From Acidimicrobiales bacterium (GTDB lineage Bacteria > Actinomycetota > Acidimicrobiia > Acidimicrobiales > AC-14), in NCBI GenBank assembly GCA_038238185.1, contig JBBRXY010000009.1, positions 1,385 through 65,384 on the forward strand: DNA of 64,000 nucleotides. Reading direction: 5' to 3'. Below, in pieces: positions 11,712 through 34,356 of the stretch. The notes beneath the pieces are model-generated. The model saw nothing but the letters and a program-made list of their open reading frames with translations, did no database searches and was not told the origin of the DNA. Positions within the stretch are counted from its first letter, which is position 1. Each line of letters opens with the position of its first letter. The position numbers and the translations under genes were made by a program.

Positions 11712-12524
11712 CCGGATGCGGTCGTCGCCCACCACGACCTCGACCGACAGACCTTCGGCCAGCGGTCGGGCGATCGAAGCGGGCTGGTCTGTGACCAGGC
11801 CGATCCAGTGAGACGACAGCGTGGGCGAGAGCACGGGCACCTTCAGGATGAAGCGCCTCCGCCCGGTGAGCTGGGCGTAGCGCCGCATCATCTGCTCGTA
11901 GGTGAGGACCTCGGAGCCGCCCACGCCGTAGCTCCCGGCGGGTATGTCGAGCGCGCCCACGAGATAGTGGACGACGTCGGCCAAAGCGATGGGCTGGCAT
12001 CTGGTTGTGACCCAGCGCGGGCAGACCATCACCGGCAGGCGGTCGACGAGCTGGCGCATGATCTCGAAACTGGTGCTGCCGGCGCCAATGACGATGGCCG
12101 CCCTGAGCTCCACGGTGTCGGCGCCGTCTCGGAGGATGCGCCCCACCTCCTGGCGCGAGCTCAGATGGGCCGACGGGTTGTCGTCGTTGCCCAGCGCCCC
12201 GAGGTAGACGACCCGTTGCCCGCCCCTTTTGGCCGCCTCGGCGAACGCAATAGCGGCCCGACGGTCGACGTTGACGAACCCGCCACCCTGCTCAGCCGGC
12301 CCTGCGGATTCCATCGAGTGCACGAGGTAGTACGCGCCCCGGCACCCGTCGAGGGCGGCCTCGATCGTGGCGGGATCCGCGGTGTCGAACAGCACGGGTT
12401 CCCCCTCGCCGTGGTAGCGCTGGGGACGCCGGGTCCCGGCCCGCACCTCGTGGCCTGCCTCAACGAGGGCGGTCACGAGATGTTTCCCAACGAAACCGGT
12501 CGCACCGGTGACAAGGATCCTCAC
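11649..12524 (-). CDS. NAD(P)H-binding NmrA/SDR-like oxidoreductase
   Basis: Rossmann N-terminus MRILVTGATGFVGKHLVTALVEAGHEV, with a DUF2867-like C-terminal half. Confidence 0.8.
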   Translation of the reverse strand: MRILVTGATGFVGKHLVTALVEAGHEVRAGTRRPQRYHGEGEPVLFDTADPATIEAALDGCRGAYYLVHSMESAGPAEQGGGFVNVDRRAAIAFAEAAKRGGQRVVYLGALGNDDNPSAHLSSRQEVGRILRDGADTVELRAAIVIGAGSTSFEIMRQLVDRLPVMVCPRWVTTRCQPIALADVVHYLVGALDIPAGSYGVGGSEVLTYEQMMRRYAQLTGRRRFILKVPVLSPTLSSHWIGLVTDQPASIARPLAEGLSVEVVVGDDRIRSLIPFDPMSFDDAVRLATSS

Positions 12525-12583
12525 CGCGCCACCCCTACCACTTTCGCCCTGATCTCACCCCTACCTGTCGTCGGCGGATCATC

Positions 12584-13186
12584 GTGAGCGAAATCGTGGT
12601 AATCGTTGTCGGGCTGGTGGTAGCCGGGTTGGCCTGGGCGTGGTTGTTCTCGGCCGGGCCGACCGAGTTCTGGAGCCGGGCGGCGGTGGCCGGGGTGGTC
12701 ATCGGCGTCTACGGGGCGGTGGCCGAGCGCCACCAGCTCCGGCACCTCCTGTGCCCTTCACTCCTCAACGTGGTCATCGGCGTGGCCGCCGCAGCCGTGC
12801 TCTACGGCGTCTTCTGGGTCGGCGACCGCCTGCTCACCAGGCTCCTCCCGGCCCAGGCCAAGGACATCGGCCGTCTCTATGCGATCCGGGGGACGGCTCG
12901 CCAGGTCCGCATGGTGGGTGTCCTCCTGGTGGTCGGCCCCTGCGAGGAGATCTTCTGGCGGGGGTTCGTGCAGCACCGGGCCGGCGTGGTCGTCGCCCTC
13001 GCCGCCTATGCCGCTGTGCATCTCTGGGAGCGCAAGGCGGTGCTGGTGCTGGCCGCGGTCGTCGGGGGGGCGTTCTGGGGAGCGCTCTTCGCGTGGACGA
13101 CGACCCTGGTGGCGCCGATGATCTGTCACGCTCTGTGGGACCTGGCCGTGGTCGTCTGGTTCCCGTTCCGTCCCCCCGAGGAGTGA
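12584..13186 (+). CDS. CPBP-family intramembrane glutamic endopeptidase (CAAX protease-like)
   Basis: Motifs EEIFWRGF, AAYAAVH and HALWD in a polytopic membrane protein. GTG start. Confidence 0.8.
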   Translation: MSEIVVIVVGLVVAGLAWAWLFSAGPTEFWSRAAVAGVVIGVYGAVAERHQLRHLLCPSLLNVVIGVAAAAVLYGVFWVGDRLLTRLLPAQAKDIGRLYAIRGTARQVRMVGVLLVVGPCEEIFWRGFVQHRAGVVVALAAYAAVHLWERKAVLVLAAVVGGAFWGALFAWTTTLVAPMICHALWDLAVVVWFPFRPPEE

Positions 13187-13225: not shown

Positions 13226-15564
<2,339 letters not shown>

Positions 15565-15568
<4 letters not shown>

Positions 15569-16308
15569 GCGGACTGCTCCTCTCTGGATCCCGGGGACCG
15601 CTGGCTCGCGGGCGGCGTGGCCGCCCGGGCCGGCGGGGTGGTCCCCCGGAACTGTGGTTTGACGAAGATCTGTCGGGCGACGCGGTCGCCCACGGTGCGG
15701 TCGGTGTCGTCGACGCGGACGACCATGGGGCCGTCGAAGGGATGCTTCTCCCGGACCTCGACGACCACGTCGGGGCGCAGGCCGAGCGTCTCCAGGAACG
15801 CCACCAGGCCCGGGTCGATCGATCCGGGAAGGGCGACGACGGCGACATCGCCGGGCTCGAGGTCGTAGAGGTGGCCCATGGCGGGGATGTCGTGTCCCTC
15901 GGCCTCGGGGATGGGAAAGCCGTGGGGGCAGGAGGTGGGCCGGTCGAGGGCCACGAAGAGGCGGTCTTCGACCTCGCCCGGCAGGTCGTGCTCGAAGGTG
16001 CCGGCCAGGCGGTCGGCCTCGTTCCAGGGGTAGCCGAGCATGTCGGACAGGAAGCGCTCGACGATGCGGTGGCGACGTATGGCCGCTACGGAGACGGCTC
16101 GGCCTGCCTCGGTGAGCTCGACGCCCCGGTAGAGCTTGTGGTCGAGCAGGCCGCGCTCGGCCAGACGCTTGACGATGGCCGTGGCCGTGCCCGGGGAGAC
16201 GCCCAACGCCTCAGCCAGGGCGCCGGTGTGGGCGTCCTTGCCGTCACGCGACAAGCGGTACAGAGACTTAAGCGCTTCGCGCTCGGACTTCGCGAGGGGG
16301 GTATCCAT
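15565..16308 (-). CDS. DtxR/IdeR/MntR-family metal-dependent transcriptional regulator with a C-terminal SH3/FeoA-like domain
   Basis: HTH (LAEALGVSPGTATAIVKRLAERGLL), metal-binding helix region (RRHRIVERFLSDMLGYPWNEADRLAGTFEHDL) and CPHGFPIP. Its stop overlaps the hppA ATG (ATGA). An alternative upstream start is at 16365. Confidence 0.85.
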
Positions 16309-16470
16309 GGCTTGGGTGACGGCAAACCTAGATTTTGGGAAGCCAAAGGTCAAGGGCCTTCGCACCGGAGCCCGTCAGTGCGGTAAGCCTGTGTCCTCCA
16401 CTTCGGTGGGTGGTGTGCCGGGAAGCCTGGTCGGCGAATCGTCTGTACGCGCTCGTCAGGAGGCCGACCG

Positions 16471-17787
16471 ATGACCAGTGACCGCTCCTCATCGGGTGCG
16501 GCCGGTGCCATGCCCGGGCGCCGCCTGCCCCGCCCGCTGAGGGAGTTCCTCGGCACCGAGGCGTCGGGAGGGATCGTGCTGGTGGTTGCGGCCCTGGTGG
16601 CGCTGGTCTGGGCCAACTCGCCGTGGAGCGCCTCCTACCGGACGCTGTGGAGCACACAGCTGTCCATCGATCTCGGTGGCCACGTGCTCGTCGAGGACCT
16701 GCAGCACTGGGTCAACGACGGCCTCATGGCGGTGTTCTTCTTCGTCGTCGGCCTGGAGATCAAGCGCGAGCTGGTGCAGGGCGACCTGCGCGACCCCCGG
16801 GCGGCGGCCTTGCCCGCCATCGCCGCCCTCGGGGGCATGGTCGTGCCGGCCGTGCTGTTCCTGGCCGTGACCGCCGGGTCGGCCGGGTCTCGCGGGTGGG
16901 GGATCCCGATGGCCACCGACATCGCCTTCGCCGTCGGGGTGGTCGCCCTCGCCGGCGACCGGGTGCCGCCGTCGCTGAAGCTGTTCCTGCTCACGCTGGC
17001 CATCGTCGACGACATCGGCGCCATCGTGGTGATCGCCGTGTTCTACACCGGCGAGGTCCAGCTCGTATACCTCGCCGCCGCTGTGGCGCTGCTGGTATTG
17101 ATGATCGGGTTGCGGCGAGCCGGCGTGGTCTGGACGGCCCCGTTTGTCGTGCTGGGCGTCGCCGTCTGGCTGGCGACTCAGGCCTCCGGCGTGCATGCCA
17201 CGATCGCCGGTGTGGCGCTCGGCCTGCTGACGCCGGCGAGGGCTCTCACCCCGGCGGCCGTCGCCCGGGTCTGGGCCGCCGATCTCAGTGACGAGCCCAG
17301 CCCGGGCGACCTCGACGACATGACACGGCTGGCGCGGACCTCGGTCTCACCAGCGGAGCGCCTGGAGCACCGCCTGCATCCCTGGACCAGCTTCGGGGTG
17401 GTGCCGCTGTTTGCCCTGGCCAACGCCGGCGTCGCCATTCGGGCCAGCGCCTTCGACTCGCACGGCACGGCTGAGGTGGCGGCCGGCGTTGTCGTGGGCC
17501 TGGTGGCGGGAAAGACCATCGGGATCACAGCGGCGTCGTGGCTGGCCGTGCGCAGCGGGCTCGGCCGTCTTCCCGACGACGCCACGTGGCCCATGGTCAT
17601 GGCAGTCGCGGCGGTGAGCGGCATCGGCTTCACCGTGTCGCTGTTCATCGCCGAGCTCGCTTTCGAGCCCGGATCCGTTCAGGATGCAGCCAAGATCGGG
17701 ATTCTAAGTGCCTCGACGCTCGCTGCGGTGGTCGGCGCATGTGCCCTTGTCGTGGCCTGTCGATCCGGCGGGCGCCGCCAGGCGTGA
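16471..17787 (+). CDS. nhaA: Na+/H+ antiporter NhaA
   Basis: FFFVVGLEIKRELVQGDL, GIPMATDIAFAVGVVAL and LLTLAIVDDIGAIVVIAVFYT match the NhaA signature helices IV, V and XI. Confidence 0.95.
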   Translation: MTSDRSSSGAAGAMPGRRLPRPLREFLGTEASGGIVLVVAALVALVWANSPWSASYRTLWSTQLSIDLGGHVLVEDLQHWVNDGLMAVFFFVVGLEIKRELVQGDLRDPRAAALPAIAALGGMVVPAVLFLAVTAGSAGSRGWGIPMATDIAFAVGVVALAGDRVPPSLKLFLLTLAIVDDIGAIVVIAVFYTGEVQLVYLAAAVALLVLMIGLRRAGVVWTAPFVVLGVAVWLATQASGVHATIAGVALGLLTPARALTPAAVARVWAADLSDEPSPGDLDDMTRLARTSVSPAERLEHRLHPWTSFGVVPLFALANAGVAIRASAFDSHGTAEVAAGVVVGLVAGKTIGITAASWLAVRSGLGRLPDDATWPMVMAVAAVSGIGFTVSLFIAELAFEPGSVQDAAKIGILSASTLAAVVGACALVVACRSGGRRQA

Positions 17788-17794
17788 GTGTCGC

Positions 17795-18184
<390 letters not shown>

Positions 18185-19795
18185 TTACACCGGAGCTTCC
18201 TCGGCCGCATCCTCTTCGTCATCGACGGGTCTCGGCGAAAACCCGCTGCTGGACCGACCGGCGGGTGAGGAGTAGCTCATTCCCTGGCCGAACTCCATGT
18301 GGTAGGCGGGCGAGCCATGCTCGTGGATGTCGAGGCCCTCGAGCTCTCCGTCGGCGGAGACCCGCAGGCTCCACGGGCCCTTGATCGACTTGATGACGTA
18401 CATGACGAGCATGGCCACGCCGAACACGACCACGACACACGTGGCACTCCCGATGACCTGCGCCTTGAGCTGGTCGGCACCGCCGCCGTAGAGGAGTCCC
18501 GTCACGACCTTGGACGTGTCGGCACCGTCGGCGGTCGGGAGGCCGTACTGCCCGCTGGCAAAGAGGCCGAGGGCGATGGTGCCCCAGATCCCGCAGAAGC
18601 CGTGCACGGCCACCGCTCCGATCGGGTCGTCCCAGCGCCGGTACTCCATGAAGTCGATCCCCAGTGGGACCACAACTCCGGCGGCGGCGCCGATGACCAG
18701 CGCCCCAAAGGGGGAGACCCAGTAGCAGGGTGCGGTGATGGCGACCAACCCACCGAGGAGGCCGTTGGTCGACATGCCCAGGTCCCACTTCTTCGAGCGG
18801 GGGTAGACCCAGAAGACCGCCATCATCCCCGCCGAACAGGCGGCGAGCGTGGTGTTGGCCGCCACTCGGCCGATTCCCTCCCAGTCCATCGCCGACAGCG
18901 TCGAACCGGGGTTGAAGCCATACCAACCGAACCACAGGATGACGCCGCCGAGTGCCCCGATCGTCAGGCTGTGCGGTGGGGTGGAGCCGCCGCCGTCACG
19001 CCTGAACCTACGGCCCAGTCGCGGCCCCAGGGTGATGCAGCCGGCCAGAGCGATGAACCCGCCGACGGTGTGCACCACAGTTGAGCCGGCGAAGTCACGG
19101 AACACTGCGTCACCGGTGAGGCCGTGGAACCATCCCATCGTGTTGCCCAGCCACCCGCCCGGCCCCCACACCCAGTGGCCGAAGATCGGATAGATGAACC
19201 CGGACACGCAGATGCTGTAGAGAATGTCGCCCTTGAACCCGGTGCGTCCCACCATTGCCCCGGAGGTGATCGTCGACGCCGTGTCGGCGAAGGCGAATTG
19301 GAAGAGGAAGAAGGCGAGGAAGGCCACTCCGGTCGACCCGTACGCTGGCGTGATGTCGTTCAGGAAGAAGAACTCGTGACCGATCAGGCCGTTGCCTATT
19401 CCGAACTGGAAGGCGAAACCGATCGCCCAGTAGAGGACCCCGCAGAGGCAGGTGTCGAACACGCACTCCATCAGGATGTTCACCGTTTCGCGCGACCTGG
19501 AGAAGCCGGCTTCGAGAGCCATGAAGCCGGCCTGCATGAAGAACACGAGGAAGGCGGTCACGAGCACCCACACCGTGTTGATGGGGCTCACGAAGTCGTT
19601 CGCCTGGTGGAGGGGCGGCGCCACGGGCAGGGCGAAGGCCGCCGAGTCGAAGAACCAGCCGAACCCCTTCACGAGGCCGAGGAGGCTGACGATCCCGAGC
19701 ATCTTTCCGCTCAGGATCACCAGGATCAGGTGCCGGGTTTCCTTGGCCTTCAGTCGGTCCAGGTGCCTCAGCCGCTCGAGTCGTGGTCGCCTCAT
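18185..19795 (-). CDS. amt: Ammonium transporter (Amt) with an acidic C-terminal extension
   Basis: FLVFFMQAGFMALEAGF, AGSTVVHTVGGFIALAG and AVHGFCGIWGTIALGLF. The start is uncertain (19795 or the ATG at about 19702). Confidence 0.95.
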   Translation of the reverse strand: MRRPRLERLRHLDRLKAKETRHLILVILSGKMLGIVSLLGLVKGFGWFFDSAAFALPVAPPLHQANDFVSPINTVWVLVTAFLVFFMQAGFMALEAGFSRSRETVNILMECVFDTCLCGVLYWAIGFAFQFGIGNGLIGHEFFFLNDITPAYGSTGVAFLAFFLFQFAFADTASTITSGAMVGRTGFKGDILYSICVSGFIYPIFGHWVWGPGGWLGNTMGWFHGLTGDAVFRDFAGSTVVHTVGGFIALAGCITLGPRLGRRFRRDGGGSTPPHSLTIGALGGVILWFGWYGFNPGSTLSAMDWEGIGRVAANTTLAACSAGMMAVFWVYPRSKKWDLGMSTNGLLGGLVAITAPCYWVSPFGALVIGAAAGVVVPLGIDFMEYRRWDDPIGAVAVHGFCGIWGTIALGLFASGQYGLPTADGADTSKVVTGLLYGGGADQLKAQVIGSATCVVVVFGVAMLVMYVIKSIKGPWSLRVSADGELEGLDIHEHGSPAYHMEFGQGMSYSSPAGRSSSGFSPRPVDDEEDAAEEAPV

Positions 19796-19872
19796 GGGTC
19801 GAACGTAAACGGCTTCTGTTTCCCGGGGATCAGCGGAATGTGAATGGAAGTTGTCGTTTCGTTCGGGCGTCC

Positions 19873-20571
19873 CTAGGTCGGCGCGGGAGAGAGGGATGAG
19901 TCGTCATGTGTCGCGCCTCCGGCTCGTGCGGCGGCGTCGGCCTCGGCGGCGCGTGTCACCCGCTGAGCCTGGTCGACCACCAGGTCGGCGGGGCGTCGGC
20001 GTTCCAGCCAGGGATTGTCGGAGACGAACCACAGGGCGATCTCCCACGGCGGCCAGGCAGCCAGCACCGCCAGCACCGGAGCCATTCCCGGAAGCGGCCG
20101 TCCGGCGCCGTCGAACTGAAAGCCGAGGTAGAGCTCCCGATTGTCGTAGGGGACGGCGAAGATCCGCCGTTCCCGACGCCAGCGCGAAGCGAGGGCCGAT
20201 CGGTTGGCGGCTCTGGAGCCGGCCAGCTCGGACACGTCGTCGGCCGAGTACGCGCCGAAATCGCGCAGCAGGCGTAATCGGACCACGGCCTGGCGTCGGG
20301 CCTGTTCCAGAGCCGCCGGCGGTGGAACCTGGATCCGGGGGAGCAGGGACTCGACGAGCTCCCCGATGACCACCTCGTGGCCCTCGTTGATCGCCGCGAC
20401 CAGGCGGCCCACCGCCCGTCGCACGGCGGTACGGGTCTCGGCATCGGCTACGACGACGAAGGCGGCCGCTGCCCCGCTGACCTCCGGGCAACGGCGGGCG
20501 AGCACCCGCCGAGCCCGGTCGTCGAGATCGACCACTTCCACACGACCTTCACGACGGTGAGCGGTAGCCAC
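19873..20571 (-). CDS. Hypothetical protein with a C-terminal DUF2384/MbcA-ParS-antitoxin-like domain (orphan)
   Basis: The C-terminal half (YSADDVSELAG...RIFAVPYDNRELYLGFQFD...WEIALWFVSDNPWLERRRPADLV) resembles Xre-associated toxin-binding domains. No toxin gene is adjacent. Confidence 0.5.
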   Translation of the reverse strand: MATAHRREGRVEVVDLDDRARRVLARRCPEVSGAAAAFVVVADAETRTAVRRAVGRLVAAINEGHEVVIGELVESLLPRIQVPPPAALEQARRQAVVRLRLLRDFGAYSADDVSELAGSRAANRSALASRWRRERRIFAVPYDNRELYLGFQFDGAGRPLPGMAPVLAVLAAWPPWEIALWFVSDNPWLERRRPADLVVDQAQRVTRAAEADAAARAGGATHDDSSLSPAPT

Positions 20572-20672: not shown

Positions 20673-22247
20673 TCAGATCTTGTCGGGAGCGTCTCCAGCC
20701 GGAGTCGTGAGCACCGGTTCGGCGACGCCGCTCTCTTGGGCTGGGGCGACGTAGGTACCGAGGCCCTCGTGACTCCCCTGGAACTCGGGGTAGGCCAGCA
20801 CGCCCATCTCGGCCATGTCGAGGCCTTCCGTCTCTACTTCCTCTGTGGGCCGGATGCCACCCTTCATGAGGGCGTTCTGCACCTTGAAGAAGATGAGGGC
20901 GATGGAGAACATGACGATGGCGATGGTGAGGATCCCCATGGCCTGGGCGGCCAGCTGGCCCGCCCCGTCGCCCCCGTAGAAGATCCCGAAGACGTTCGGA
21001 GTGCCTCCCGTGAGGTTCCAATCCCCGCCGTAGCTGCCATCGGCGAAAAGGCCCACGGCGAGCACGCCCCAGGCTCCACAGACCCCGTGGACGGAGATGG
21101 CACCGACCGGGTCGTCGATGCCCCGCTTCTCGATGAACCATACCGACTCGACCACGACGAATCCGGCGACGACGCCGATCACCGCCGCGGCCCAGGGCTG
21201 GACGAAGGCGCAGGGGGCAGTGATGGCCACCAGTCCGGCGAGCATGCCGTTGGCCATCATCCCCGGGTCGGGCTTCTTGTCACGGCGCTGCTGCTTCCAC
21301 AGCATGGCGGCCACGGCTCCGAACGCTGCGGCGATGGCGGTGTTGGCGGCCACGACGGCGAAGCGGTTGTCGGTGGCCGCGAAGGTGGAGGCGGCGTTGA
21401 ACCCGAACCACCCGAACAGCAGGATGAACGTGCCCAGCATGGCCATGGGGATGTGATGGCCGGGGAGGGTCCGGGGTTTGCCGTCGGGCCCGTACTTGCC
21501 CAGCCGAGGCCCGAGCACCATCGCCCCGGCCAGTCCGGCTACGCCGCCCATCATGTGAACGACGCCGGAGCCGGCGAAGTCGACGTAGCCGTGTCCCATG
21601 TCGGCGCTGACGCCGAGCTGGGACAGCCACCCCCCACCCCAGGTCCAGGCTCCGAACAGGGGATAGTAGATGGCGCCGCAGAACAGTCCCCACTGGACGA
21701 AGGCGCTCCACTTCCAACGTTCGGCCATCGCCCCCGTGGGGATGGTGGCCGTGGTGTCCATGAACGCCACCATGTAGAGGAAGAATGCGAGCGTGCCCAC
21801 GTCGTAGGCCTTGCCACCGAGGAAGAAGCCGCCCTTCCACAACAGCACGTGGTTTCCGGACCCGATCAGGGCCCCGCCGACAGGGCTGTCGAGGCCGAAC
21901 ACTCCCGGGAGGCTGTACCCCCCGAACATGAAGGCGTAGCCGACGCAGAAGAAGGCCACGAACCCGAGGCCGAAGACGGCGAAGTTGGTGGTCACCACGT
22001 GAGCGGCGTGCTTGGCCCGGCAGAACCCGGTCTCCACCAGCGCGAAGCCGGCCTGCATGAAGATCACCAGCACGGCGCCGATCACAATCCACAGCAGGTT
22101 CAGGCTGATCTCGCCGTGCGTCAGCGGGATCGGATTCGCCGGGTCGAGGGGCGGGGTTCCACCGCCATCGGTGGAGCTCGCCCACGCTGTCGCGGCCATG
22201 ACGGCAAACGCCGCCACTCCGCAGGCAGCACCGACGGCCGCTTTCAT
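20673..22247 (-). CDS. amt: Ammonium transporter, second paralog, with an N-terminal signal peptide
   Basis: MKAAVGAACGVAAFAVMAATAWA signal peptide, VIFMQAGFALVETGF, AGSGVVHMMGGVAGLAG and SVHGVCGAWGVLAVGLF. Start trimmed to the ATG at 22247. Confidence 0.95.
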   Translation of the reverse strand: MKAAVGAACGVAAFAVMAATAWASSTDGGGTPPLDPANPIPLTHGEISLNLLWIVIGAVLVIFMQAGFALVETGFCRAKHAAHVVTTNFAVFGLGFVAFFCVGYAFMFGGYSLPGVFGLDSPVGGALIGSGNHVLLWKGGFFLGGKAYDVGTLAFFLYMVAFMDTTATIPTGAMAERWKWSAFVQWGLFCGAIYYPLFGAWTWGGGWLSQLGVSADMGHGYVDFAGSGVVHMMGGVAGLAGAMVLGPRLGKYGPDGKPRTLPGHHIPMAMLGTFILLFGWFGFNAASTFAATDNRFAVVAANTAIAAAFGAVAAMLWKQQRRDKKPDPGMMANGMLAGLVAITAPCAFVQPWAAAVIGVVAGFVVVESVWFIEKRGIDDPVGAISVHGVCGAWGVLAVGLFADGSYGGDWNLTGGTPNVFGIFYGGDGAGQLAAQAMGILTIAIVMFSIALIFFKVQNALMKGGIRPTEEVETEGLDMAEMGVLAYPEFQGSHEGLGTYVAPAQESGVAEPVLTTPAGDAPDKI

Positions 22248-22327
22248 GGATCTGTGACGCACAGGGCCCTCCCTTGTCGAACAGTTGCCCGTTTCCGGGA
22301 GAGTAGGGAAAACCGGTTTCGAAGCCG

Positions 22328-25120
22328 TCACCCGCGTGTTGCCGTTCGTGGGCGATCGTCTTTCGTGTATCTGACACGAAGCCGGGCCCAACGCGACGGG
22401 GATGCCCCCTGAGCGAGGGTACGGCTCATCCGGCCGATGGTCCGATCGTCGAGTTTTCGGCCCGAGCGGTCGGTGAGCTCGAACACGTCGCGAGCCGTAC
22501 CCTCGGAAGTGGTCGAGAGCCGGGCTGCGTGCACGTTCGTCCCCGCCGAGGCGAAGGCGGTTGTGAGCTGGAAGAGGAGACCCTTCCGGTCGACCGCCTC
22601 GACCGTTACAACCGAGTGCCAGGGCGACGCCTCGTTGTCAACGTCGAGGACCGCATCCGGAAGTGACGACGAGGAGAGTGGCGCATCCAGCGCCGCGATC
22701 ATGCGCGCCTCGAGCTCCCGCGGGTCCGGCGGTTGACCGGCGACGACGAACGAGCCGAGCGCGCATCCGTCGCCCCAGGTGGCGACGGTCGCGGCGGTGA
22801 CATCGAGGTCGAACGAGGCGAGCACCCCGGCCTCGGCGGCCAGCAGGCCTAAGCGGTCGGCCGCCACCAGCTCCACCCGGAGCCCGTCCTGGGCGAGGGA
22901 GGCGCCATTGCCGGCGGCCGCAGGGGGAGTAGTGCCCGGCCTCGGTGATCGGACCAGCGACACCCGGACCGACTGACGGCCGGGCGCGGGTTCGGACAGC
23001 GTGGCCTGGCGGGCCAGGTCGACGGGATCGACGGCGAGTACGTAGGCCCGCGGCGCAACGGCGATGCGCTCCCTGACCGCGGGATCATCGGTGAGCCGGC
23101 CGGCACGGGCCCTTCGTTCCTCGACGGTGTTCGACGCGCCCCGCCCCACCAGTTCGGGGTGGGACAGAACTTGCTGGAGGAGTGCGTCCAGGGCTCGTAG
23201 GCGGTCGCGCATCCCGATGTCGCCATTGACGCCGGCCTGGGCGAGCAGGTATTGAGCTCTCGCTCGTTCGGGTGAGCCGAGGTGGGCGGCAAGCTGGAGC
23301 ACGGGCTCCTCTGACAGGGCGTCGAGACGGCGGGCGGCGGCGGGAAGGAGGGCGACGTTGTCCACCAGTCCGGCCACGGCCTGCTCGGTGGCCGCACCTA
23401 GATCGAGCCGTTTGACCAGCCGGCGAGCCACGATCACCGGCTCGTCCGGGCCACCGTCGGTGGCATCGAGGACGATGGCAGCGAGGAGGAGGCGTTCGGG
23501 ATTGGTGACCTCCGTCGAAATGGGATCCTCCCGGAGGCGGGCAAGGGTGGGCCAGCGCAACGCCTCGAGAGGGTCGACCTGGGTGGCGTCGGCCTGACGT
23601 CGTCGGAGGGCCTCGGCGAGCTCGGGCAGGGCACGGTTGAGGATCCCGGTCACGGCGAGGAACCGCCACGAGCGGGGACCGCCTCCGGCCAACAGCTCGA
23701 GCAGCCGTCGCCGGGCCTCGGCGTTCCATGGCAGGCGTTCGTCGGGCAGGTCGCCCAGCCACGACAACAGTCGAGAACCGGGCTGGCGGGTCTCACATGC
23801 CAGTGCAGCCTGGAGGGCCACCGTGAGGGCGTCGGCCAGCGGAGGCTCGCCGGCCAACTCCACCGTGCGGTCCGATTCCCCGCCTATACCGGCTGTATGC
23901 ACCTTCAACCATCCGCCGGGGGGTGCCGATTGGGGTGCGGCCGCTCGGACCCGGGCCCGCAACCGACCCAGGCGCCAGCGCAGCGCCGGTGGTGTGAACA
24001 ACGTCGTCGCCAGCACGACCAGGAGGAGGGCGGCGTACAGGTCATCTCCGAAGACGTGCTGGCGCAGCCCGATGGCGGCGAAGATCAAGCCCACCTCGCC
24101 GCGCGGGATCATGCCGATGCCCACCAGCAGTCGGTCACCGCGACCGAGCAGGCCGGCCGCCGAGACGAGCTTGGTGATGACCGCCACCGCCAGGAGGGCG
24201 CCCGCCAGGGCCAGCACCGCGGGGTCGGCGAACCGGCCCACGTCGGCGTCGATGCCGATCTGGAGAAAGAACACCGGGATGAAGAGGTGCCCGACCGGCG
24301 CCAGGTCTCGGCGGATTCGGTCGGCCGCTCGGCATCGCGACAGCGAGATGCCGGCGACGAAGGCGCCGACGATGGGCGCCAGCCCCGCGACCTCGGCCAG
24401 TTCGGCCACGCCCAGGGTGAAGGCGAGGGCCAGACCCACCAGCGTGCCCGCCGAACGGCTGTGCCGTTGCACCAGGGCGAACACCTGGGGCGCCAGGCGA
24501 ACACCGATGACCGTCGTGATCACGAGGAAGCCGATGGCCAGGGCGACCACACCCACGACCGACAGCGCCGACACCGTGTCTCCGGATACGACCTTGACGA
24601 CCACGGTGAGGATGACGAGCCCGATCACGTCGTCGGCCACGGCCGCGCCAAGGACGGTGCGAGCCTCCACCGTGGCCAGGGCACCCAGGTCGTTGAAGAC
24701 TCGGGCGGTGATGCCCACACTTGTTGCCGTGAGGGCGGCGCCGACGAACAGTGCCTCCTGACCCGACATCCCGACCAGGACACCCATGCCCCCGCCGGCC
24801 GCGAACGGGACGGCAACCCCTATGAGCGCCACGGTGATCGACGATCGTCCGACCGCTCCCAGCTCGGCCAGGTCCATCTCCATGCCGACCTGTAGCAGCA
24901 GGAGGATCACGCCCAGCTGCCCCAGAACGGAGAGGACGGCGTCGCCGCCGACCAGCCCCAGGGCGGATGGGCCGATGAGCACCCCGGCCAGGATCTCGCC
25001 GACCACGGCCGGAACACCGACGCGTTCAGCCACCTCGGCGGCGACCTTGGCCGCAACGAGAACGACAAGAACATGGAGAAGAACCGTGGTGACGCTCGTC
25101 TGGGCGACGGTAGGGAGCAT
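22328..25120 (-). CDS. Fusion protein: N-terminal CPA2 (Kef-type) cation/H+ antiporter plus a C-terminal GlnD-like module (degenerate HD region and two ACT domains, no nucleotidyltransferase domain)
   Basis: About the first 390 aa are polytopic, with GEILAGVLIGPSALG and LLLLQVGMEMDL. The C-terminal 540 aa parallels GlnD: AVTGILNRALPELAEAL...QVDPLEALRWPTL, LLLAAIVLDATDG and APRAYVLAVDPVDLARQ. ACT-like units are VAADRLGLLAAEAGVLASFDLDV and VEAVDRKGLLFQLTTAFASAGTNVHAARLSTTSEGTARDVFELTD. Confidence 0.8.
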   Translation of the reverse strand: MLPTVAQTSVTTVLLHVLVVLVAAKVAAEVAERVGVPAVVGEILAGVLIGPSALGLVGGDAVLSVLGQLGVILLLLQVGMEMDLAELGAVGRSSITVALIGVAVPFAAGGGMGVLVGMSGQEALFVGAALTATSVGITARVFNDLGALATVEARTVLGAAVADDVIGLVILTVVVKVVSGDTVSALSVVGVVALAIGFLVITTVIGVRLAPQVFALVQRHSRSAGTLVGLALAFTLGVAELAEVAGLAPIVGAFVAGISLSRCRAADRIRRDLAPVGHLFIPVFFLQIGIDADVGRFADPAVLALAGALLAVAVITKLVSAAGLLGRGDRLLVGIGMIPRGEVGLIFAAIGLRQHVFGDDLYAALLLVVLATTLFTPPALRWRLGRLRARVRAAAPQSAPPGGWLKVHTAGIGGESDRTVELAGEPPLADALTVALQAALACETRQPGSRLLSWLGDLPDERLPWNAEARRRLLELLAGGGPRSWRFLAVTGILNRALPELAEALRRRQADATQVDPLEALRWPTLARLREDPISTEVTNPERLLLAAIVLDATDGGPDEPVIVARRLVKRLDLGAATEQAVAGLVDNVALLPAAARRLDALSEEPVLQLAAHLGSPERARAQYLLAQAGVNGDIGMRDRLRALDALLQQVLSHPELVGRGASNTVEERRARAGRLTDDPAVRERIAVAPRAYVLAVDPVDLARQATLSEPAPGRQSVRVSLVRSPRPGTTPPAAAGNGASLAQDGLRVELVAADRLGLLAAEAGVLASFDLDVTAATVATWGDGCALGSFVVAGQPPDPRELEARMIAALDAPLSSSSLPDAVLDVDNEASPWHSVVTVEAVDRKGLLFQLTTAFASAGTNVHAARLSTTSEGTARDVFELTDRSGRKLDDRTIGRMSRTLAQGASPSRWARLRVRYTKDDRPRTATRG

Positions 25121-25184
25121 GCGTTGCCAGTCGATGTTCGCCGCATGAACGGTCTGTTACATCGGCCTCCTGGCTGATGACGGC

Positions 25185-25574
25185 GTGTCACCGGTGTGGC
25201 AAGGTCGAGGCATGTTCACTGAGGAGTGGAACACCGTCCCTTTGCGCGACCGGCGTCGCATCCGCCGGATGGTCCGCATCGGCCGTCTTCCCGAGGACGC
25301 CGACGAGGCTCGACTGGCCCAGGCCTTCGCCGTTCGGGAGCGGGCTCGGCTGGTATGGCGCGCCTTCTGGTTCTGGTTCGTCCCGGCAATGATCGTTGCC
25401 CTCGGGGTGGCGATGACGATCCACCCCATCGTCATCGGCATCGTCCTGGCCACCGGCGCCCAGGCCTTGGTCGTCCGCCGCAATGCCAGCCGCATCGCTC
25501 GCCAGTCCGCCGACCGGCCCCTTTCCGGACCTCGAGGCGCTCCTGTTTCGCCTCTCTCAGCGGAGTGTGACTAG
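25185..25574 (+). CDS. Hypothetical small membrane protein
   Basis: Two predicted TM helices (FWFWFVPAMIVALGVAMTIHPIVIGIVLATGA). The start is uncertain (ATG at 25212 is plausible). No family recognised. Confidence 0.4.
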   Translation: MSPVWQGRGMFTEEWNTVPLRDRRRIRRMVRIGRLPEDADEARLAQAFAVRERARLVWRAFWFWFVPAMIVALGVAMTIHPIVIGIVLATGAQALVVRRNASRIARQSADRPLSGPRGAPVSPLSAECD

Positions 25575-29041: not shown

Positions 29042-29194
29042 TGCCACAAGCACAGCCCACCGCCGCCTCAAGGGGCCGTCAACGCGTGCCCCAGACCGTA
29101 AAGATGGCGCAAGTATCAGGTCGTGATCACGGACGGACGTGCCGCCGGGGCCCACAACCAGCTCGCGCGGTGCGATGGTGGGGGTACGTCAACA

Positions 29195-30334
29195 ATGACC
29201 GGTCTCGTTTTCGCACGCAAGACGCCGTGGTTGGGCGCCGCCGTCGGTGTTGCCGTCGTGGGCGCGACGGTGGCAGCGTTGGCGCCGCTCGGGGCCGACG
29301 TGAGCCGCGCCACACCCGCGCTGGTGCTTGTCCTCGCCGTGGTGGGCGCCTGCCTCCTGGGTGGTGGACGAGCGGCCGTGACCGTGGCCGTGGTGGCCGC
29401 CGTCACCTACAACCTCGCATTCGTACCTCCGGTGTGGACCCTTAAGGTCAACGCCGGTGAGGACTGGGTGGCACTGGCCGTCTTCCTGGCCGTCGCCGTC
29501 TCGGTGGGCCTGCTCGTGGCCGGGGAGGCCGACCGGCGCCGGCGGGCCGAGCAGCGCGAGGCCGAGCTGCGCGCCCTGTACGCCGAGCTCGAGGCGGTCG
29601 CGGCCGAACGGGGCCGGCTGGCCGAGGAGGCAGCCCGGGTCACCCTCCTCGAAGACGTCGACGAGCAGCGGTCCGCACTGCTGCGCTCGGTGTCGCACGA
29701 TCTGCGTACTCCGCTGGCGACCATCCGGGCCGTGGCCAGCGACTTGCGTGACGGGACCGTCTACGACGAGCCCACCCGTACCGAGCTCCTGGCCACCGTC
29801 TGCGACGAGGCCGAGCGCCTCGACCGACTGGTGGCCAACCTGCTCTCGCTGTCGCGCATCGAGGCCGGCGCGCTGCGCCCGGAGCGCCAGGCTGTCCCGT
29901 TCGATGAGCTCGTCACCGATCGGGTCCGGCGCCTGTCCCGGATGTTCCGCCAGGTGCGTGTCGACGTGAGCCTGCCCGCCGACCAGTCCCTGGTCGACGG
30001 CGACTACAGCCAGCTCGACCAGGTGGTGACCAATCTCCTGGAGAACGCCGCCCGCCACGCTCCCCAGGGGTCCACCGTCCGCCTCGACGGCCGCAGGCGC
30101 GACGCCATGCTCGAGGTGCGGGTGAGCGACGAGGGCTCCGGCGTAGCCGAGTGGGAACGCAACCGGGTGTTCGAGGCATTCCGTCGTGGAGAGGGCAGCT
30201 CGTCGACCGGTGTCGGCCTGGCTATCTGCGCGGCCATCGTCGAGGCTCATGACGGGCAGATCTGGGTCGAGCACACCTCGGGCGGCGGAGCTACCTTCGT
30301 GTTCACCCTGCCGCTCAGGAAGATGGGCCCGTGA
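29195..30334 (+). CDS. KdpD-like sensor histidine kinase lacking the N-terminal KdpD/Usp sensor (DUF4118 TM module plus HisKA plus HATPase)
   Basis: Four TM helices, then EQRSALLRSVSHDLRTPLATIRAVASDL and NLLENAARHAP...GVGLAICAAIVEAHDGQIWVE. Only about 380 aa, versus about 850-900 aa for full-length KdpD (from memory). Confidence 0.85.
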   Translation: MTGLVFARKTPWLGAAVGVAVVGATVAALAPLGADVSRATPALVLVLAVVGACLLGGGRAAVTVAVVAAVTYNLAFVPPVWTLKVNAGEDWVALAVFLAVAVSVGLLVAGEADRRRRAEQREAELRALYAELEAVAAERGRLAEEAARVTLLEDVDEQRSALLRSVSHDLRTPLATIRAVASDLRDGTVYDEPTRTELLATVCDEAERLDRLVANLLSLSRIEAGALRPERQAVPFDELVTDRVRRLSRMFRQVRVDVSLPADQSLVDGDYSQLDQVVTNLLENAARHAPQGSTVRLDGRRRDAMLEVRVSDEGSGVAEWERNRVFEAFRRGEGSSSTGVGLAICAAIVEAHDGQIWVEHTSGGGATFVFTLPLRKMGP

Positions 30335-31080
30335 CGTCCGCTCCGACGGTGCTGGTGGTCGACGACGAGCCGGCCATCCTGCGGGCGCTTCGCGCCGGCC
30401 TCGAGGCCCGCGGCTACCGCGTCCGCACCGCCACCGACGGCCAGGGCGCCATCGACCTCGTGGCCCTGGAGGCACCCGACCTGGTCGTGCTCGATCTCGG
30501 GCTGCCCGACCTCGACGGTGTCGACGTCTGCCGGCGCATCCGCGGATGGACCGACGTTCCCATCGTCGTGCTGTCGGCGGACGGCTCGGACCAACGGAAG
30601 GTCGTCGCCCTCGACGAGGGGGCCGACGACTACGTGACCAAGCCCTTCTCCATGGCCGAGCTCCTGGCGCGGGTCCGCGTCGCCCTACGTCACCGCCCCG
30701 CCTCGGAGGCCGGCACTTCGTCCAGGCACGGAGCCGGACCGATCGACCAGTCCGTGCTCGAGGTGGGCGACCTGCGCGTCGATGTGGCTCGCCGTCATGT
30801 CGACGTCGGCGGACGCCGGGTCGAGCTCACGCCCAAGGAGTTCGCCTTCCTGGTGCTGCTGGCCCGCTGGCCGGGGCGGGTCCTCACCCACGGGGCCATC
30901 CTCGCCGACGTCTGGGGTCCGGGCTACGAGACAGAGACCCAGTACCTGCGCGTCTACGCCAGCCAGCTGCGCAAGAAGCTCGACGACGACCCCTCCCGTC
31001 CCCGGCTGGTGACCGAGCCCGGGGTGGGCTACCGCTTGGTGGACCCGTCGGAGTCCGGTGCCGGCGGTGGACCTGGGTAG
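30331..31080 (+). CDS. OmpR-family response regulator, KdpE-like
   Basis: VLVVDDEPAILRAL...DLVVLDLGLPDLDG...DDYVTKPFSMAELLARVRVALRH plus a winged helix (LTPKEFAFLVLLARWPGRVLTH...YLRVYASQLRKKL...TEPGVGYRL). GTGA overlap with the kinase gene. Confidence 0.9.
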   Translation: MTSAPTVLVVDDEPAILRALRAGLEARGYRVRTATDGQGAIDLVALEAPDLVVLDLGLPDLDGVDVCRRIRGWTDVPIVVLSADGSDQRKVVALDEGADDYVTKPFSMAELLARVRVALRHRPASEAGTSSRHGAGPIDQSVLEVGDLRVDVARRHVDVGGRRVELTPKEFAFLVLLARWPGRVLTHGAILADVWGPGYETETQYLRVYASQLRKKLDDDPSRPRLVTEPGVGYRLVDPSESGAGGGPG

Positions 31081-32951
31081 GACTCCTTGCTGTCGCCGGG
31101 TTTGTGCAGGTGGTACGGCACCGAGGTCACGACGGTGCCCTCCCGGAACAGGAGCTTGGCCTTGAGCATCAGCGCGCTCTGGTTGTGGAGCAGCTGTTCG
31201 TACCACTTGCCCACCACGAACTCGGGGATGACCACGGTGACGGTGTCGTTGTCCCAGCGGGCGTCGAGCTCGTCGATGTAGCGCTCGATGGGCCCGACCA
31301 GGTCGCGGTAGGGAGAGGGCACGATCTCGAGGGGGACGTCGATGCCCATGTCCTTCCACTGGCGTTCCAGGGCCAGGCGGTCCTCGTCCTCGTACGACAC
31401 GTAGACCGCCACCAGGTGCTGGGGACGCAGCGACCGGGCGTAGGACAGCGCCTTGAGCACGCCGCGGTGGACCCGGCCCACGAGCACGACGACCGTGTGA
31501 TTGATGGCCTCGGGGCGCACCGGCGCGCTCTCGACTGCGAGCGTGGCGGCGACACGGTCGTAATGACGCTTGATGGCCGTGAACAGGGCGATGATCGCCG
31601 GGACCACGATGATGGGCACCCATGCGCCCTGGGTGAACTTGGTGGTGGCGATGATGAGCAGGACGATGAACGTGGCCACCGACCCCACGGCGTTGATGGC
31701 GACGCCCCGCTGCCAGCCCGGTTCTTTGAGCCGGCGGTGATGCTGCACCATCCCTGCCTGACTCAGAGTGAACGCGGTGAACACACCCACCGCGTAGAGG
31801 GGGATGAGGGCATTGGTGAGGCCCCCGAAGGCGACCAGCAACGCGGCCGCAAGCACCGACAGGATGATGATGCCATTGGAGAACACCAAGCGGTCGCCCC
31901 GGCCCGACAGCTGCCGGGGCAGGTAGCCGTCGCGGGCGATCATCGACGACAGCAGGGGGAAACCGGCGTAAGCGGTGTTGGCGGCCAGGGTGAGGATGGC
32001 GGCGGTGGCGAACTGGAGGATGACGTAGAGGGGCCCACCTCCGTAGACGGCCTGGCCCATCTGCGAGATGACCGTCTCCTCGTGGCTGGGGAAGGGGTGG
32101 AGGTGGTGGGCCAGCACCGACACCCCGAAGAACAGGGTGCCCAGGATCAACCCCATCCAGGTGATGGTGACGGCGGCGTTCTTCGCTTCGGGCTTGCGAA
32201 AGCCGGGGACGCCGTTGGAGATGGCCTCGACGCCGGTGAGCGCCACCGCTCCCGACGAGAAGCCCCGCAGCAGCAGGACCAGGGTCAGCGACCCCCCCGC
32301 TTCGAGGACGGCCGACGACTTGGCCGGGTCGAACGGGATGGGGTCGATGCTGCCGAAGTAGGTCTGGAACAAGCCGTAGCCGACCAGGGCGGTGAGGCTG
32401 AAGATGTAGATGTAGGTGGGGATGGCGAAGACCGACCCCGACTCCTTGATGCCGCGCAGGTTGGCGACGGTGATCATGGCGATGAGGATCAGGCCGACCA
32501 GCACCCGTTTGCTCTCGAGCCCCCGGAACGCAGGCAGGGAGATGATGGCGGCTACCCCCGCGGAGATCGACACCGAGACGGTCAGCACGTAATCGACGAG
32601 GAGCGAAGCACCGGCGACCAGCGACGCCTTGTCGCCGAGGTTCTCGCGGCTGACGATGTAGGACCCGCCACCGCTGGGATAGGCGAAGATCGTCTGGCGG
32701 TACGACGCCACCACGAGGGTGAGCAGGACGGCCACCACGATGGAGATGGGCACCAACCTGGACAGGCCCAGGGCCAGGCTGGACGGGGCCAAGGCCACCA
32801 CGAACAGGATTTCCTCGGTGGCATAGGCCGTCGACGAGATGGCGTCGGAGGAGAACGTGGCCAGGGCGATGAGCTTGCGCAACCGCTGGTGATCCTGCTG
32901 ATCGGAGGGAATGGGCCGACCCACCAGCAGACGCTTGAACAACGACGACAT
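31029..32951 (-). CDS. APC-superfamily permease with a cytoplasmic C-terminal domain (copy 2)
   Basis: Paralog of 26978..29041 (LIALATFSSDAISSTAYATEEILFVV ... TSVPYHL). Its 3' end overlaps the convergent kdpE-like gene by 52 nt. Confidence 0.85.
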   Translation of the reverse strand: MSSLFKRLLVGRPIPSDQQDHQRLRKLIALATFSSDAISSTAYATEEILFVVALAPSSLALGLSRLVPISIVVAVLLTLVVASYRQTIFAYPSGGGSYIVSRENLGDKASLVAGASLLVDYVLTVSVSISAGVAAIISLPAFRGLESKRVLVGLILIAMITVANLRGIKESGSVFAIPTYIYIFSLTALVGYGLFQTYFGSIDPIPFDPAKSSAVLEAGGSLTLVLLLRGFSSGAVALTGVEAISNGVPGFRKPEAKNAAVTITWMGLILGTLFFGVSVLAHHLHPFPSHEETVISQMGQAVYGGGPLYVILQFATAAILTLAANTAYAGFPLLSSMIARDGYLPRQLSGRGDRLVFSNGIIILSVLAAALLVAFGGLTNALIPLYAVGVFTAFTLSQAGMVQHHRRLKEPGWQRGVAINAVGSVATFIVLLIIATTKFTQGAWVPIIVVPAIIALFTAIKRHYDRVAATLAVESAPVRPEAINHTVVVLVGRVHRGVLKALSYARSLRPQHLVAVYVSYEDEDRLALERQWKDMGIDVPLEIVPSPYRDLVGPIERYIDELDARWDNDTVTVVIPEFVVGKWYEQLLHNQSALMLKAKLLFREGTVVTSVPYHLHKPGDSKESYPGPPPAPDSDGSTKR

Positions 32952-33028: not shown

Positions 33029-33682
33029 ATGCACGTCGTCGTCGTGGGCTGTGGGCGGGTGGGATCCGAGCTGGCCAACGCGCTCGAGCTCGACGGCCAC
33101 AGCGTCTCGATCATCGACAAGAACCGGTACGCCTTCCGCCGCCTGCCCGACAGTTTCGCGGGCAAGGCGATCGTCGGTTTCGGGTTCGACCGCTCCCATC
33201 TCGAAGATGCGGGGGTCAAGGAGGCCGACGCGCTGGCGGCCGTGACCAATGGCGACAACACCAACATCCTCACCGCCCGGATCGCCCGGGAGACCTACGA
33301 GATCCGCAACGTGGTGGCCCGTATCTACGACCCCCGCCGGGCTGCCATCTACCAGCGCCTCGGCATCCCCACGGTGGCCACGGTCGCCTGGACCACCGAC
33401 CAAGTGCTGCGACGCCTACTACCGGCTCGCTCGGTGACCGAGTGGAGCGACGCCACCGGCACGTTGAGCATCATCGAGTACCCCCTCCCCGACGCCTGGG
33501 CGGGCCACAAGCTGGTCGAGCTGGCCGAGGGCGACCGCTTCCGCCTGGTTGGCCTCACCCGGGGTGGAGATGCCCGCGTGGTCGGCCACGAGGCCGTCGG
33601 CCAAGAGGGCGACACTCTCCATCTCATCGTGCACCGTGACGCCATCGAGGACCTCGAGGCACGACTGGAGGGCCGACCGTGA
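33029..33682 (+). CDS. trkA: TrkA-family K+ transport NAD-binding regulatory protein (TrkA-N plus TrkA-C), first of two
   Basis: MHVVVVGCGRVGSELANALELDGHSVSIID...NGDNTNILTARIA Rossmann/RCK motifs. Confidence 0.9.
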   Translation: MHVVVVGCGRVGSELANALELDGHSVSIIDKNRYAFRRLPDSFAGKAIVGFGFDRSHLEDAGVKEADALAAVTNGDNTNILTARIARETYEIRNVVARIYDPRRAAIYQRLGIPTVATVAWTTDQVLRRLLPARSVTEWSDATGTLSIIEYPLPDAWAGHKLVELAEGDRFRLVGLTRGGDARVVGHEAVGQEGDTLHLIVHRDAIEDLEARLEGRP

Positions 33683-34356
33683 AGGTGGCCATCGCCGGCG
33701 CCGGCAACGTGGGCGTGTACATCGCCGCCGACCTGCGCGAGAACGGCCACGAGGTGATGCTCATCGAGCAGGACCCCGACCTGGTGGCCGTGCTGCGCCC
33801 CCGGCTCGACGTGCGCTGGTTCATCGCCGACGCCTGCGAGCCCGACAGCCTCCGGGCCGCCGGGTTCGACGAGATGGACGTGGTCGTGGCCGCCACCGGA
33901 GACGACGAGGACAATCTGGTCATCTCCCTTCTGTCGAAGCAGGAGTTCGCCGTTCCCAGAGTGGTGGCCCGGGTCAACCACCCCGACAACCAGTGGCTGT
34001 TCAACGAGTCGTGGGGAGTCGACGTCTCGGTATCGACGCCACACCTGCTGACGGCGCTGGTGGAGGAGGCCGTGCAGGTCGGTTCTCTGGTCCGCCTCCT
34101 GCAGTTCCAGGATGCCAATCTGGTCGAGGTCACCCTGGCCGCCGACTCGCCGGCGGTCGGGGTTTGCCTCAGCGATCTGGGCGTGCCGCGCGACGCCACC
34201 GTCGTCGCCGTCATCCGGGAGCGTCACGTGGTCGTGCCTCGAGGCGAGACCATGATGCAGGCGGCCGACGAGGTCCTCTTGCTCGTGAGCCCCGAGTCGG
34301 TCGACCAGGTGAAGGCGCTGCTGGTCGGCCCCGGAGGGCCGACGCCACTCGGTTAG
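33679..34356 (+). CDS. trkA: TrkA-family K+ transport NAD-binding regulatory protein, second of two
   Basis: MKVAIAGAGNVGVYIAADLRENGHEVMLIE...GDDEDNLVISLLSK. 4-nt overlap with the first trkA. Confidence 0.9.
   Translation: MKVAIAGAGNVGVYIAADLRENGHEVMLIEQDPDLVAVLRPRLDVRWFIADACEPDSLRAAGFDEMDVVVAATGDDEDNLVISLLSKQEFAVPRVVARVNHPDNQWLFNESWGVDVSVSTPHLLTALVEEAVQVGSLVRLLQFQDANLVEVTLAADSPAVGVCLSDLGVPRDATVVAVIRERHVVVPRGETMMQAADEVLLLVSPESVDQVKALLVGPGGPTPLG

Follow-up and report, generated by a model that had tools for sequence, protein, structure and literature searches.

A NapA-type cation/proton antiporter joined to a GlnD-derived C-terminal module next to ammonium transporter genes in an Acidimicrobiales bacterium

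The window analysed here is the whole stretch of 64,000 nt at positions 1,385-65,384 of contig JBBRXY010000009.1 (assembly GCA_038238185.1, Acidimicrobiales bacterium, lineage AC-14). At 22328-25120 its minus strand harbours one long open reading frame (ORF), the predicted product of which is a NapA-type CPA2 antiporter joined to a C-terminal module derived from GlnD. The original prediction, made from the letters of the window, had placed one intact 930-codon ORF at exactly these coordinates and described it as an antiporter fused to a GlnD-like tail. Both statements stand, with the strand to be added: the plus-strand translation of the interval is riddled with stops, so the reverse complement must have been used. 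The fusion is now backed by the family models PF00999 and TIGR01693, by profile-profile alignment (hhalign) and by the same architecture in homologues. With a G+C content of 0.68-0.73 the gene is similar to its surroundings. Its parts are as follows (aa, amino acid positions).

22328-25120, minus strand: fusion gene (ATG at 25120, TGA at 22330-22328; 930 aa, uninterrupted)
23945-25120, minus strand: antiporter domain (aa 1-392; 13 predicted helices; D163, D164, K317, R340 and E342; unwound segment ATSVG at aa 132-136)
23744-23944, minus strand: post-membrane linker (aa 393-459; β-hairpin GGWL...VEL followed by helices in the AlphaFold model; G403, W404 and L405 conserved)
22976-23743, minus strand: pseudo-HD region (aa 460-715; all-helical, delimited by hhalign and NCBIfam; ligand positions L521, L551, D552 and G630 in the hhalign alignment)
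22676-22888, minus strand: first ACT domain, ACT1 (about aa 745-815; motif DRLGLL; D755, G758, L759 and F791 at least 90 % conserved; aligned by hhalign to ACT1 of GlnD)
22406-22618, minus strand: second ACT domain, ACT2 (about aa 835-905; motif DRKGLL; D844, G847, L848 and F880 at least 90 % conserved; hhalign)

The membrane half is spanned by PF00999 (Na_H_Exchanger) from aa 23 to 380 (E 1e-62; 212.6 bits against a Pfam gathering cut-off of 26.2). Among solved structures, a phmmer search ranks the NapA entries 4bwz and 5bz2 best (E about 1e-64, aa 14-393), with 38 % identity to Thermus NapA, whereas KefC is reached at 1e-17 only. A full-length AlphaFold (AF2) model was built with 62 homologues as input (mean predicted local distance difference test score, pLDDT, 86; predicted template modelling score, pTM, 0.67); when compared by Foldseek it superimposes on the inward-facing NapA structure 5bz2 with a template modelling (TM) score of 0.91 (root-mean-square deviation 2.5 Å), as opposed to 0.59 for KefC. 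TIGR00932 (2a37) is the top NCBIfam model for this half, yet its 174.2 bits stay below the curated cut-off of 238.3. In the same NCBIfam scan the Kef equivalog models NF002924 and NF002973 remain far below their cut-offs of 752-804 with 66-67 bits, and a Pfam scan of the fusion yields no TrkA_N/RCK (PF02254) match.

The ion site is invariant in all 62 aligned homologues and comprises D163 and D164 (equivalent to D156 and D157 of NapA), Val135 within the unwound ATSVG segment of TM4/5, K317 (K305 of NapA) as well as R340 and E342 at the helix crossover. K+/H+ exchangers are characterised by a 'QD' pair and a Thr where NapA has Val, Na+/H+ exchangers by ND or DD, and single exchanges at these positions abolish K+ binding in KefC (PMC11150392). 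By this rule, the combination of DD, Val135 and Lys marks a NapA-type Na+(Li+)/H+ antiporter rather than a Kef K+ efflux protein. The membrane half is thus assigned, from sequence and model, as NapA-type, with electrogenic Na+(Li+)/H+ antiport as the predicted activity. Accordingly, the earlier designation of this domain as Kef-type has to be replaced, and the flux of K+/H+ or NH4+ proposed along with it is unsupported, the invariant residues being those of the NapA Na+/H+ site.

The protein shares with Thermus thermophilus NapA (4bwz, 5bz2) the 13-helix fold, the DD pair, the lysine of TM10/11 and the PRGEVG crossover, but NapA stops right after the last helix, while the fusion carries an extra cytoplasmic module of 540 aa. 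In this respect it resembles KefC/KefB of Escherichia coli, where a ligand-binding domain in the cytoplasm is fused to a CPA2 transporter and governs its activity by docking onto it (PMC11150392). KefC differs, however, in both parts, combining a QD/Thr K+ site with a glutathione- and AMP-binding RCK (Rossmann) domain, where the fusion has DD/Val, a pseudo-HD domain and two ACT domains.

The tail is matched by the GlnD model TIGR01693 in a single collinear stretch (aa 460-903 to profile positions 369-846 of 850, E 2.2e-27); across family members this match begins at position 336-370. The score (95.7 bits) lies below the curated equivalog cut-off of 519.4; the tail is derived from GlnD without the protein itself being a GlnD. 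The same relation emerges from an hhalign comparison of the family's C-terminal profile with E. coli GlnD (aa 460-904 to GlnD 408-882, again collinear; 97.8 % probability, E 1e-12), and tblastn with E. coli GlnD reaches the C-terminal halves of 14 homologous genes at E values down to 1e-12. As the ACT pair alone supplies most of the GlnD score (E 8e-12), the helical region was examined separately. When aa 395-715 are compared with curated GlnD hidden Markov models, GlnD is the top family in seven of eight diverse members (E 3e-9 to 5e-4, collinear with profile positions of about 364-646); against the single E. coli GlnD sequence the hhalign match of the helical region is weak (E 0.016; reversed control 0.5). 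Pfam scans of the fusion and of family members reveal neither a nucleotidyltransferase (NTase) domain (PF01909) nor PF08335. Taken together, the tail represents the rear ~60 % of a GlnD, namely (i) the pre-HD helices, (ii) the HD region, (iii) the linker and (iv) two ACT domains.

This agrees with the initial description of the tail as collinear with the C-terminal two-thirds of GlnD and devoid of a nucleotidyltransferase. The motifs proposed at that time also fall where they had been placed: in the hhalign alignment 'EALRW' lies over the first His of 'VDEH', 'VLDATD' over 'FHDIAK' and 'APRAYVLAV' over the GlnD linker 'CRANYFVRH'. With respect to the domains expected, PF00999 and two ACT domains were recovered, whereas PF08335 and the Pfam HD model gave no match. 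An unrelated family such as RCK for the tail is not seen, GlnD models ranking top. Solved structures contribute little: the sequence search of the Protein Data Bank (PDB) with the fusion returned NapA and KefC as sole matches, so that no solved GlnD is within reach, and no experimental GlnD structure surfaced in the PDB searches by sequence or by Foldseek with the tail model. In a Foldseek search, the helices of this model resemble the helical body seen in class II tRNA nucleotidyltransferases only weakly (E 5e-4, TM 0.3-0.4), a similarity that is uninformative on HD. Compared with GlnD (TIGR01693), the fusion has in common the collinear tail including the 'R-A-x-Y-F/V' linker and also the amt/glnK neighbourhood (PMC10704036), but differs in the absence of NTase and PF08335, the loss of the HD ligands and the membrane anchorage via the antiporter, and would be unable to modify PII.

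In the alignment with E. coli GlnD, the first HD histidine (VDEH) faces L521, the dyad (FHDIAK) faces L551-D552 and the distal aspartate (TVADIC) faces G630. These replacements hold family-wide: among 62 homologues, Leu stands in for the first His in 57 and for the His of the dyad (HD to LD) in 56, with the Asp present in 58, and the Pfam HD model PF01966 matched none of 25 members even at E ≤ 1. The loss of HD catalytic residues, as foreseen for this single protein, therefore extends to the family. At the same time, R483, W485, R486, R496, L498, P499, D516, P517, R566, R571 and R685 are invariant within the helical region, and a model of the tail alone attains a pLDDT of 89 and a pTM of 0.84, with values above 90 in the pseudo-HD region. 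Such strong constraint together with a well-predicted fold points to an old pseudoenzyme rather than a decaying remnant, and the helical domain is, as judged from the alignments, ancient, conserved and catalytically dead throughout the family.

Both of the postulated ACT-like units are present according to Pfam, hhalign and AF2. PF01842 (ACT) matches aa 837-888 (E 2e-11), a second ACT stretch is likewise reported by Pfam, and the AF2 model contains two β-α-β-β-α-β units (aa 747-828 and 836-904), for which Foldseek with the tail retrieves the tandem-ACT proteins 2nyi, 2f06 and 1u8s. The nearest NCBIfam families of the ACT domains are GlnD models throughout; weak Pfam matches to ACR9-type ACT also occur in the fusion. 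The signature of GlnD-type ACT domains, i.e., Asp and Leu in the β1-α1 loop and Phe in β4, is kept in both units (D755/L759/F791 and D844/L848/F880). AMA2, an amylase activated by glutamine, shares these ACT positions with GlnD and ACR11, and the glutamine response of GlnD depends on its ACT domains (PMC11190351). Glutamine is hence the most likely ligand of the ACT pair. Plant ACR11 and the Chlamydomonas α-amylase AMA2 likewise present GlnD-like ACT domains on, or acting on, an unrelated effector (PMC11190351, PMC3173338), but are soluble and without an HD remnant, while the fusion has an ion transporter as effector and keeps the rear of GlnD in full. Between the linker strand and ACT1, a Pro/Ala/Gly-rich insertion (SPRPGTTPPAAAGNGASLAQDG, aa 725-745; 22850-22915, minus strand) is observed, which is modelled at pLDDT < 50 and is missing or far shorter in most homologues.

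The best 120 database matches (from NCBI, ENA, JGI and Logan assemblies) are all 880-960 aa long, display the same architecture and share 53-83 % identity with the window protein. An exhaustive tail-only search (E ≤ 1e-30) retrieved at least 173 clusters at 50 % identity, across which the tail is 35-50 % identical and the top 150 of which all belong to this family. Matches of 470-800 aa were considered as a stand-alone tail architecture and rejected, as they start within the last membrane helices and represent N-terminally cut fragments of the same fusion. In the tail search, no partner other than this antiporter was found, with one possible exception: in a metagenomic protein of 577 aa (P0146), the tail appears to be preceded by just one hydrophobic helix and a stretch rich in Arg in place of the full antiporter, which could reflect truncation or a wrong gene call. 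A frameshift or mis-assembly joining two genes is practically out of the question as the origin of the architecture and was rejected: the ORF is unbroken, the short matches are pieces of the fusion, and more than 120 independent sequences of the same architecture are known from NCBI, ENA, JGI and Logan assemblies, some of them on contigs of 0.2-3.8 Mb.

The homologues with this architecture fall almost entirely within Acidimicrobiia and other Actinomycetota. In the species representatives of GTDB, the complete fusion is confined to Actinomycetota, mostly Acidimicrobiia (Ilumatobacteraceae, Microthrixaceae), with a few metagenome-assembled genomes labelled 'Mycobacteriales', 'Actinomycetes' and 'Bifidobacterium' as the other carriers. 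NapA-like relatives in Gemmatimonadota, Acidobacteriota, Planctomycetota and others end after the membrane domain. A short variant of about 590 aa occurs in freshwater Actinomycetota (L020, 1416-3197; L021, 9188-10984) and consists of the NapA-type domain and a helical tail of about 190 aa, which aligns weakly to the front of the pseudo-HD region (hhalign E 1e-4, probability 58 %) and lacks ACT domains. Members of the family are annotated merely as 'cation:proton antiporter' or 'KefB / ACT domain protein'. Literature searches found no description of an antiporter-GlnD/ACT fusion, a GlnD pseudoenzyme or GlnD in Acidimicrobiia, and so far as these searches show, the architecture is undescribed, as had been surmised.

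In the window, the fusion gene is followed on the minus strand, after a gap of 65-80 nt, by a first ammonium transporter gene (amt1), an ORF of 232 aa, a second ammonium transporter gene (amt2) and glnK, with the run ending at a convergent nhaA gene on the opposite strand. The ammonium transporter gene predicted to lie directly downstream is thus present on the same strand.

22316-22331, minus strand: GlnR-type box GTGAC-n6-GAAAC, overlapping the stop codon of the fusion, 54-84 nt upstream of amt1
20673-22262, minus strand: amt1 (GTG at 22262 or ATG at 22247; PF00909, E 1e-106; TIGR00836 above cut-off)
19873-20571, minus strand: ORF of 232 aa between amt1 and amt2, no Pfam or NCBIfam match
18185-19795, minus strand: amt2 (PF00909, E 2e-112)
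17795-18136, minus strand: glnK, encoding PII (PF00543, E 1e-26; Tyr51 kept), last gene of the run

The C-terminus of the 232-aa product (WFVSDNPWLERRRPADL) resembles, by eye, the toxin-binding motif of DUF2384/Xre antitoxins; at the corresponding position, related loci have a small gene for a 186-aa protein of unknown family (L083) or an HTH_31 protein (L082). An ORF of 112 aa upstream of the fusion (25157-25495, minus strand) was considered as glnK and rejected, as it has no Pfam match. A divergent ORF of 114 aa (25226-25570, plus strand), with two predicted hydrophobic helices and no family match, begins about 105 nt from the start codon of the fusion, across a common promoter region.

Conserved synteny supports the functional link to amt put forward previously. 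An amt gene is directly adjacent on the same strand in 12 of 19 fusion loci from GTDB representatives, lying downstream in nine (with glnK in between in L009 and L019) and upstream in three (L002, L005, L012); two further amt-adjacent fusion loci come from other assemblies. Among 61 loci in which the match ends after the membrane domain, amt is found in two only, namely those of the short variant (L020, L021). With these two grouped with the fusions, 14 of 21 actinobacterial loci have an adjacent amt, as compared to none of 59 NapA-like relatives devoid of a tail (Fisher p 8e-11). The varied gene orders around amt argue against simple inheritance of the adjacency. The gene for GlnK is within reach in 5 of 21 loci.

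The usual operon in Streptomyces and mycobacteria is amtB-glnK-glnD, and some actinomycetes, e.g., S. erythraea, have no glnD (PMC10704036). By tblastn with E. coli GlnD, no glnD was found after glnK, either in the window or in any of five related loci, and the tail and E. coli GlnD as queries detected no second GlnD-like gene within the 64 kb. Tyr51, the site of modification, is on the other hand kept by each of the nine neighbouring GlnKs, and this speaks for a catalytic GlnD being encoded at another genomic site.

Further genes of ion homeostasis flank the run on both sides, the fusion being situated within a dense cluster of this kind at 13226-34356.

13226-15568, minus strand: H+-pyrophosphatase
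15565-16365, minus strand: DtxR-like repressor with FeoA domain
16471-17787, plus strand: NhaA
26978-29155 and 31029-32951, minus strand: two APC-family permeases (640-725 aa) with long C-terminal extensions
29123-31080, plus strand: KdpD-C-like histidine kinase and OmpR-type regulator
33029-34356, plus strand: two TrkA-like genes

The box at 22316-22331 is the sole match in the window to the strict actinomycete GlnR consensus gTnAc-n6-GaAAc (PMC10704036), with 0.17 expected by chance. In 7 of 13 related loci, amt is preceded by loose GlnR boxes (background 0.05 per kb), and pairs of GAAAC about 22 nt apart recur upstream of amt and are rare upstream of fusion genes, that of the window having none. 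Consensus matching detected no GlnR-type box upstream of the window's fusion, and a promoter/terminator scan revealed nothing relevant between the fusion and amt. Since the box lies in the gap between fusion and amt with none before the fusion, a nitrogen-regulated promoter of its own is probable for amt, as far as consensus matching can tell. Expression apart from amt, with regulation at the protein level, is likewise probable for the fusion; co-transcription of the two is doubtful. In addition, GGAAAC followed 8-13 nt on by GTTCGAC precedes both amt starts (22270-22295 and 19797-19822, minus strand) and may constitute a shared operator besides the strict GlnR box.

Glutamine is the cellular signal of nitrogen sufficiency. 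Amt-mediated ammonium uptake is electrogenic, and its assimilation frees one proton per NH4+; nitrogen-tied Na+/H+ exchange might thus guard the pH of the cytoplasm or adjust NH3/NH4+ trapping. Against this background, the fusion product may be a Na+/H+ antiporter gated by a ligand at its GlnD-type ACT pair, probably glutamine, a reading to which we give an even chance. The protein would form a homodimeric, electrogenic NapA-type Na+(Li+)/H+ antiporter with a regulatory C-terminus, placed in the cytoplasm by homology with NapA and KefC. The ACT pair would, by inheritance, most likely bind glutamine, and ligand binding would alter the docking of the helical domain onto the transporter's cytoplasmic side. 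The signal would be relayed by the dead HD domain, the change in docking gating the elevator movement as RCK does in KefC, where the fused C-terminal domain docks onto and inhibits the CPA2 transporter and is released on ligand change (PMC11150392). In this way, Na+/H+ exchange (and with it cytoplasmic pH, proton-motive force and the Na+ cycle) may be tuned post-translationally to ammonium uptake and assimilation, while a GlnR-type site of its own governs the transcription of amt. The architecture, the homology, the loss of catalytic residues, the Na+-type ion site, the breadth of the family and the synteny are shown by the data, whereas we infer which ligand is bound, in which direction it regulates and what physiological purpose is served.

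Several points weigh against glutamine-gated antiport. In the full-length model, confidence in the contact between the domains is no more than moderate (pTM 0.67). The range of ligands bound by ACT domains is wide, so that homology falls short of proving glutamine specificity. The synteny counts are phylogenetically non-independent, and in 4 of 21 loci (L006, L007, L018, L027) no amt lies within 10 kb. The short variant, despite lacking ACT domains, still has amt-glnK-amt-glnK after its gene, which suggests that the helical part may have a role of its own. Furthermore, an electrogenic Na+/H+ antiporter imports protons, which makes the logic with ammonium assimilation not obvious.

The promiscuity of ACT domains leaves room for a different ligand (amino acid or nucleotide), in which case the proximity to amt would be a relic of amtB-glnK-glnD ancestry. 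The absence of a GlnR box at the fusion itself would fit, as would the setting of one subclade among leucine-biosynthesis-type genes: in L006, L007 and L018 (fusion at about 10001-12700 in each), a divergent leuC-like aconitase-family gene lies alongside, accompanied in L018 by an IclR regulator, and the fusion is followed by YceI-like and leuB-like dehydrogenase genes in L006 and L007 and by hydantoinase/oxoprolinase A and B in L018. However, the signature residues of GlnD-type ACT domains are conserved, and an adjacency to amt that survives rearrangements of order and orientation over 35-80 % sequence divergence is hard to square with a relic, which makes this explanation unlikely, if still worth considering. 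GlnD's HD domain acts on modified PII, and the pseudo-HD domain could accordingly have become a docking site by which GlnK plugs or releases the antiporter as it does AmtB, with the ACT pair modulating binding. The invariant residues that cluster in the helical domain, most of them charged or aromatic (R483, W485, R486, R496, D516, R566, R571), are in line with such a site, as are the T-loop with Tyr51 in all neighbouring GlnKs, the position of glnK between fusion and amt in L009 and L019, and the short variant, which keeps the front of the pseudo-HD region next to amt-glnK-amt-glnK without any ACT domain. Yet glnK is within reach in just 5 of 21 loci, the homology of the short tail is weak, and the conserved residues might just as well contact the transporter, so that GlnK docking appears rather unlikely. 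Its fuller form, in which the dead HD domain is a GlnK receptor, the antiporter a second membrane target of PII beside AmtB and glutamine on the ACT pair a second input, is improbable.

Some CPA2 members are reported to move NH4+ and K+, as in the case of Bacillus AmhT, and two amt genes lie close by; both would favour the original prediction, if it is taken to mean that the protein is an efflux valve for K+ or NH4+ in exchange for H+, set by nitrogen status and standing in for a missing GlnD. Loss of GlnD would moreover be compatible with the lack of glnD after glnK in the window and five related loci and with its complete absence from some actinomycetes such as S. erythraea (PMC10704036). 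The ion site is nevertheless of the DD/Val135 type typical of Na+/H+ exchange, in place of the QD and Thr required for K+ (PMC11150392), and NapA is far closer than KefC by both sequence and fold. Without an NTase domain the tail could not stand in for GlnD catalysis, and Tyr51 in every neighbouring GlnK suggests that a modifying enzyme persists. A replacement of glnD, on which a 64-kb window cannot decide, is unsupported, and the valve as a whole is improbable too. Gating of the Na+/H+ antiporter via the ACT pair is the reading preferred here.

Cation/proton antiporters fused to sensors are known, including KefC with RCK, SOS1, and SLC9C1 with CNBD. GlnD-type ACT domains, too, are known as portable glutamine sensors; a fusion of both kinds is, so far as the literature searches show, undescribed. 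Databases overlook the relation to GlnD, at least 173 clusters being labelled only 'cation:proton antiporter'. The remnant of GlnD represents an ancient pseudoenzyme conserved across Acidimicrobiia, a major lineage of soil, freshwater and marine habitats. Should the GlnK-receptor reading hold true, no earlier case would exist of a cation/proton antiporter under PII control or of a GlnD turned into a pseudoenzyme adaptor. If the tail senses glutamine or GlnK, the protein would offer a natural single-chain system for studying signal transmission by the sensor half of GlnD and would provide a direct link between nitrogen status and Na+/H+ homeostasis (pH, proton-motive force). The usual adjacency to amt hints at a coupling of ion and pH balance to cellular nitrogen status in these bacteria.

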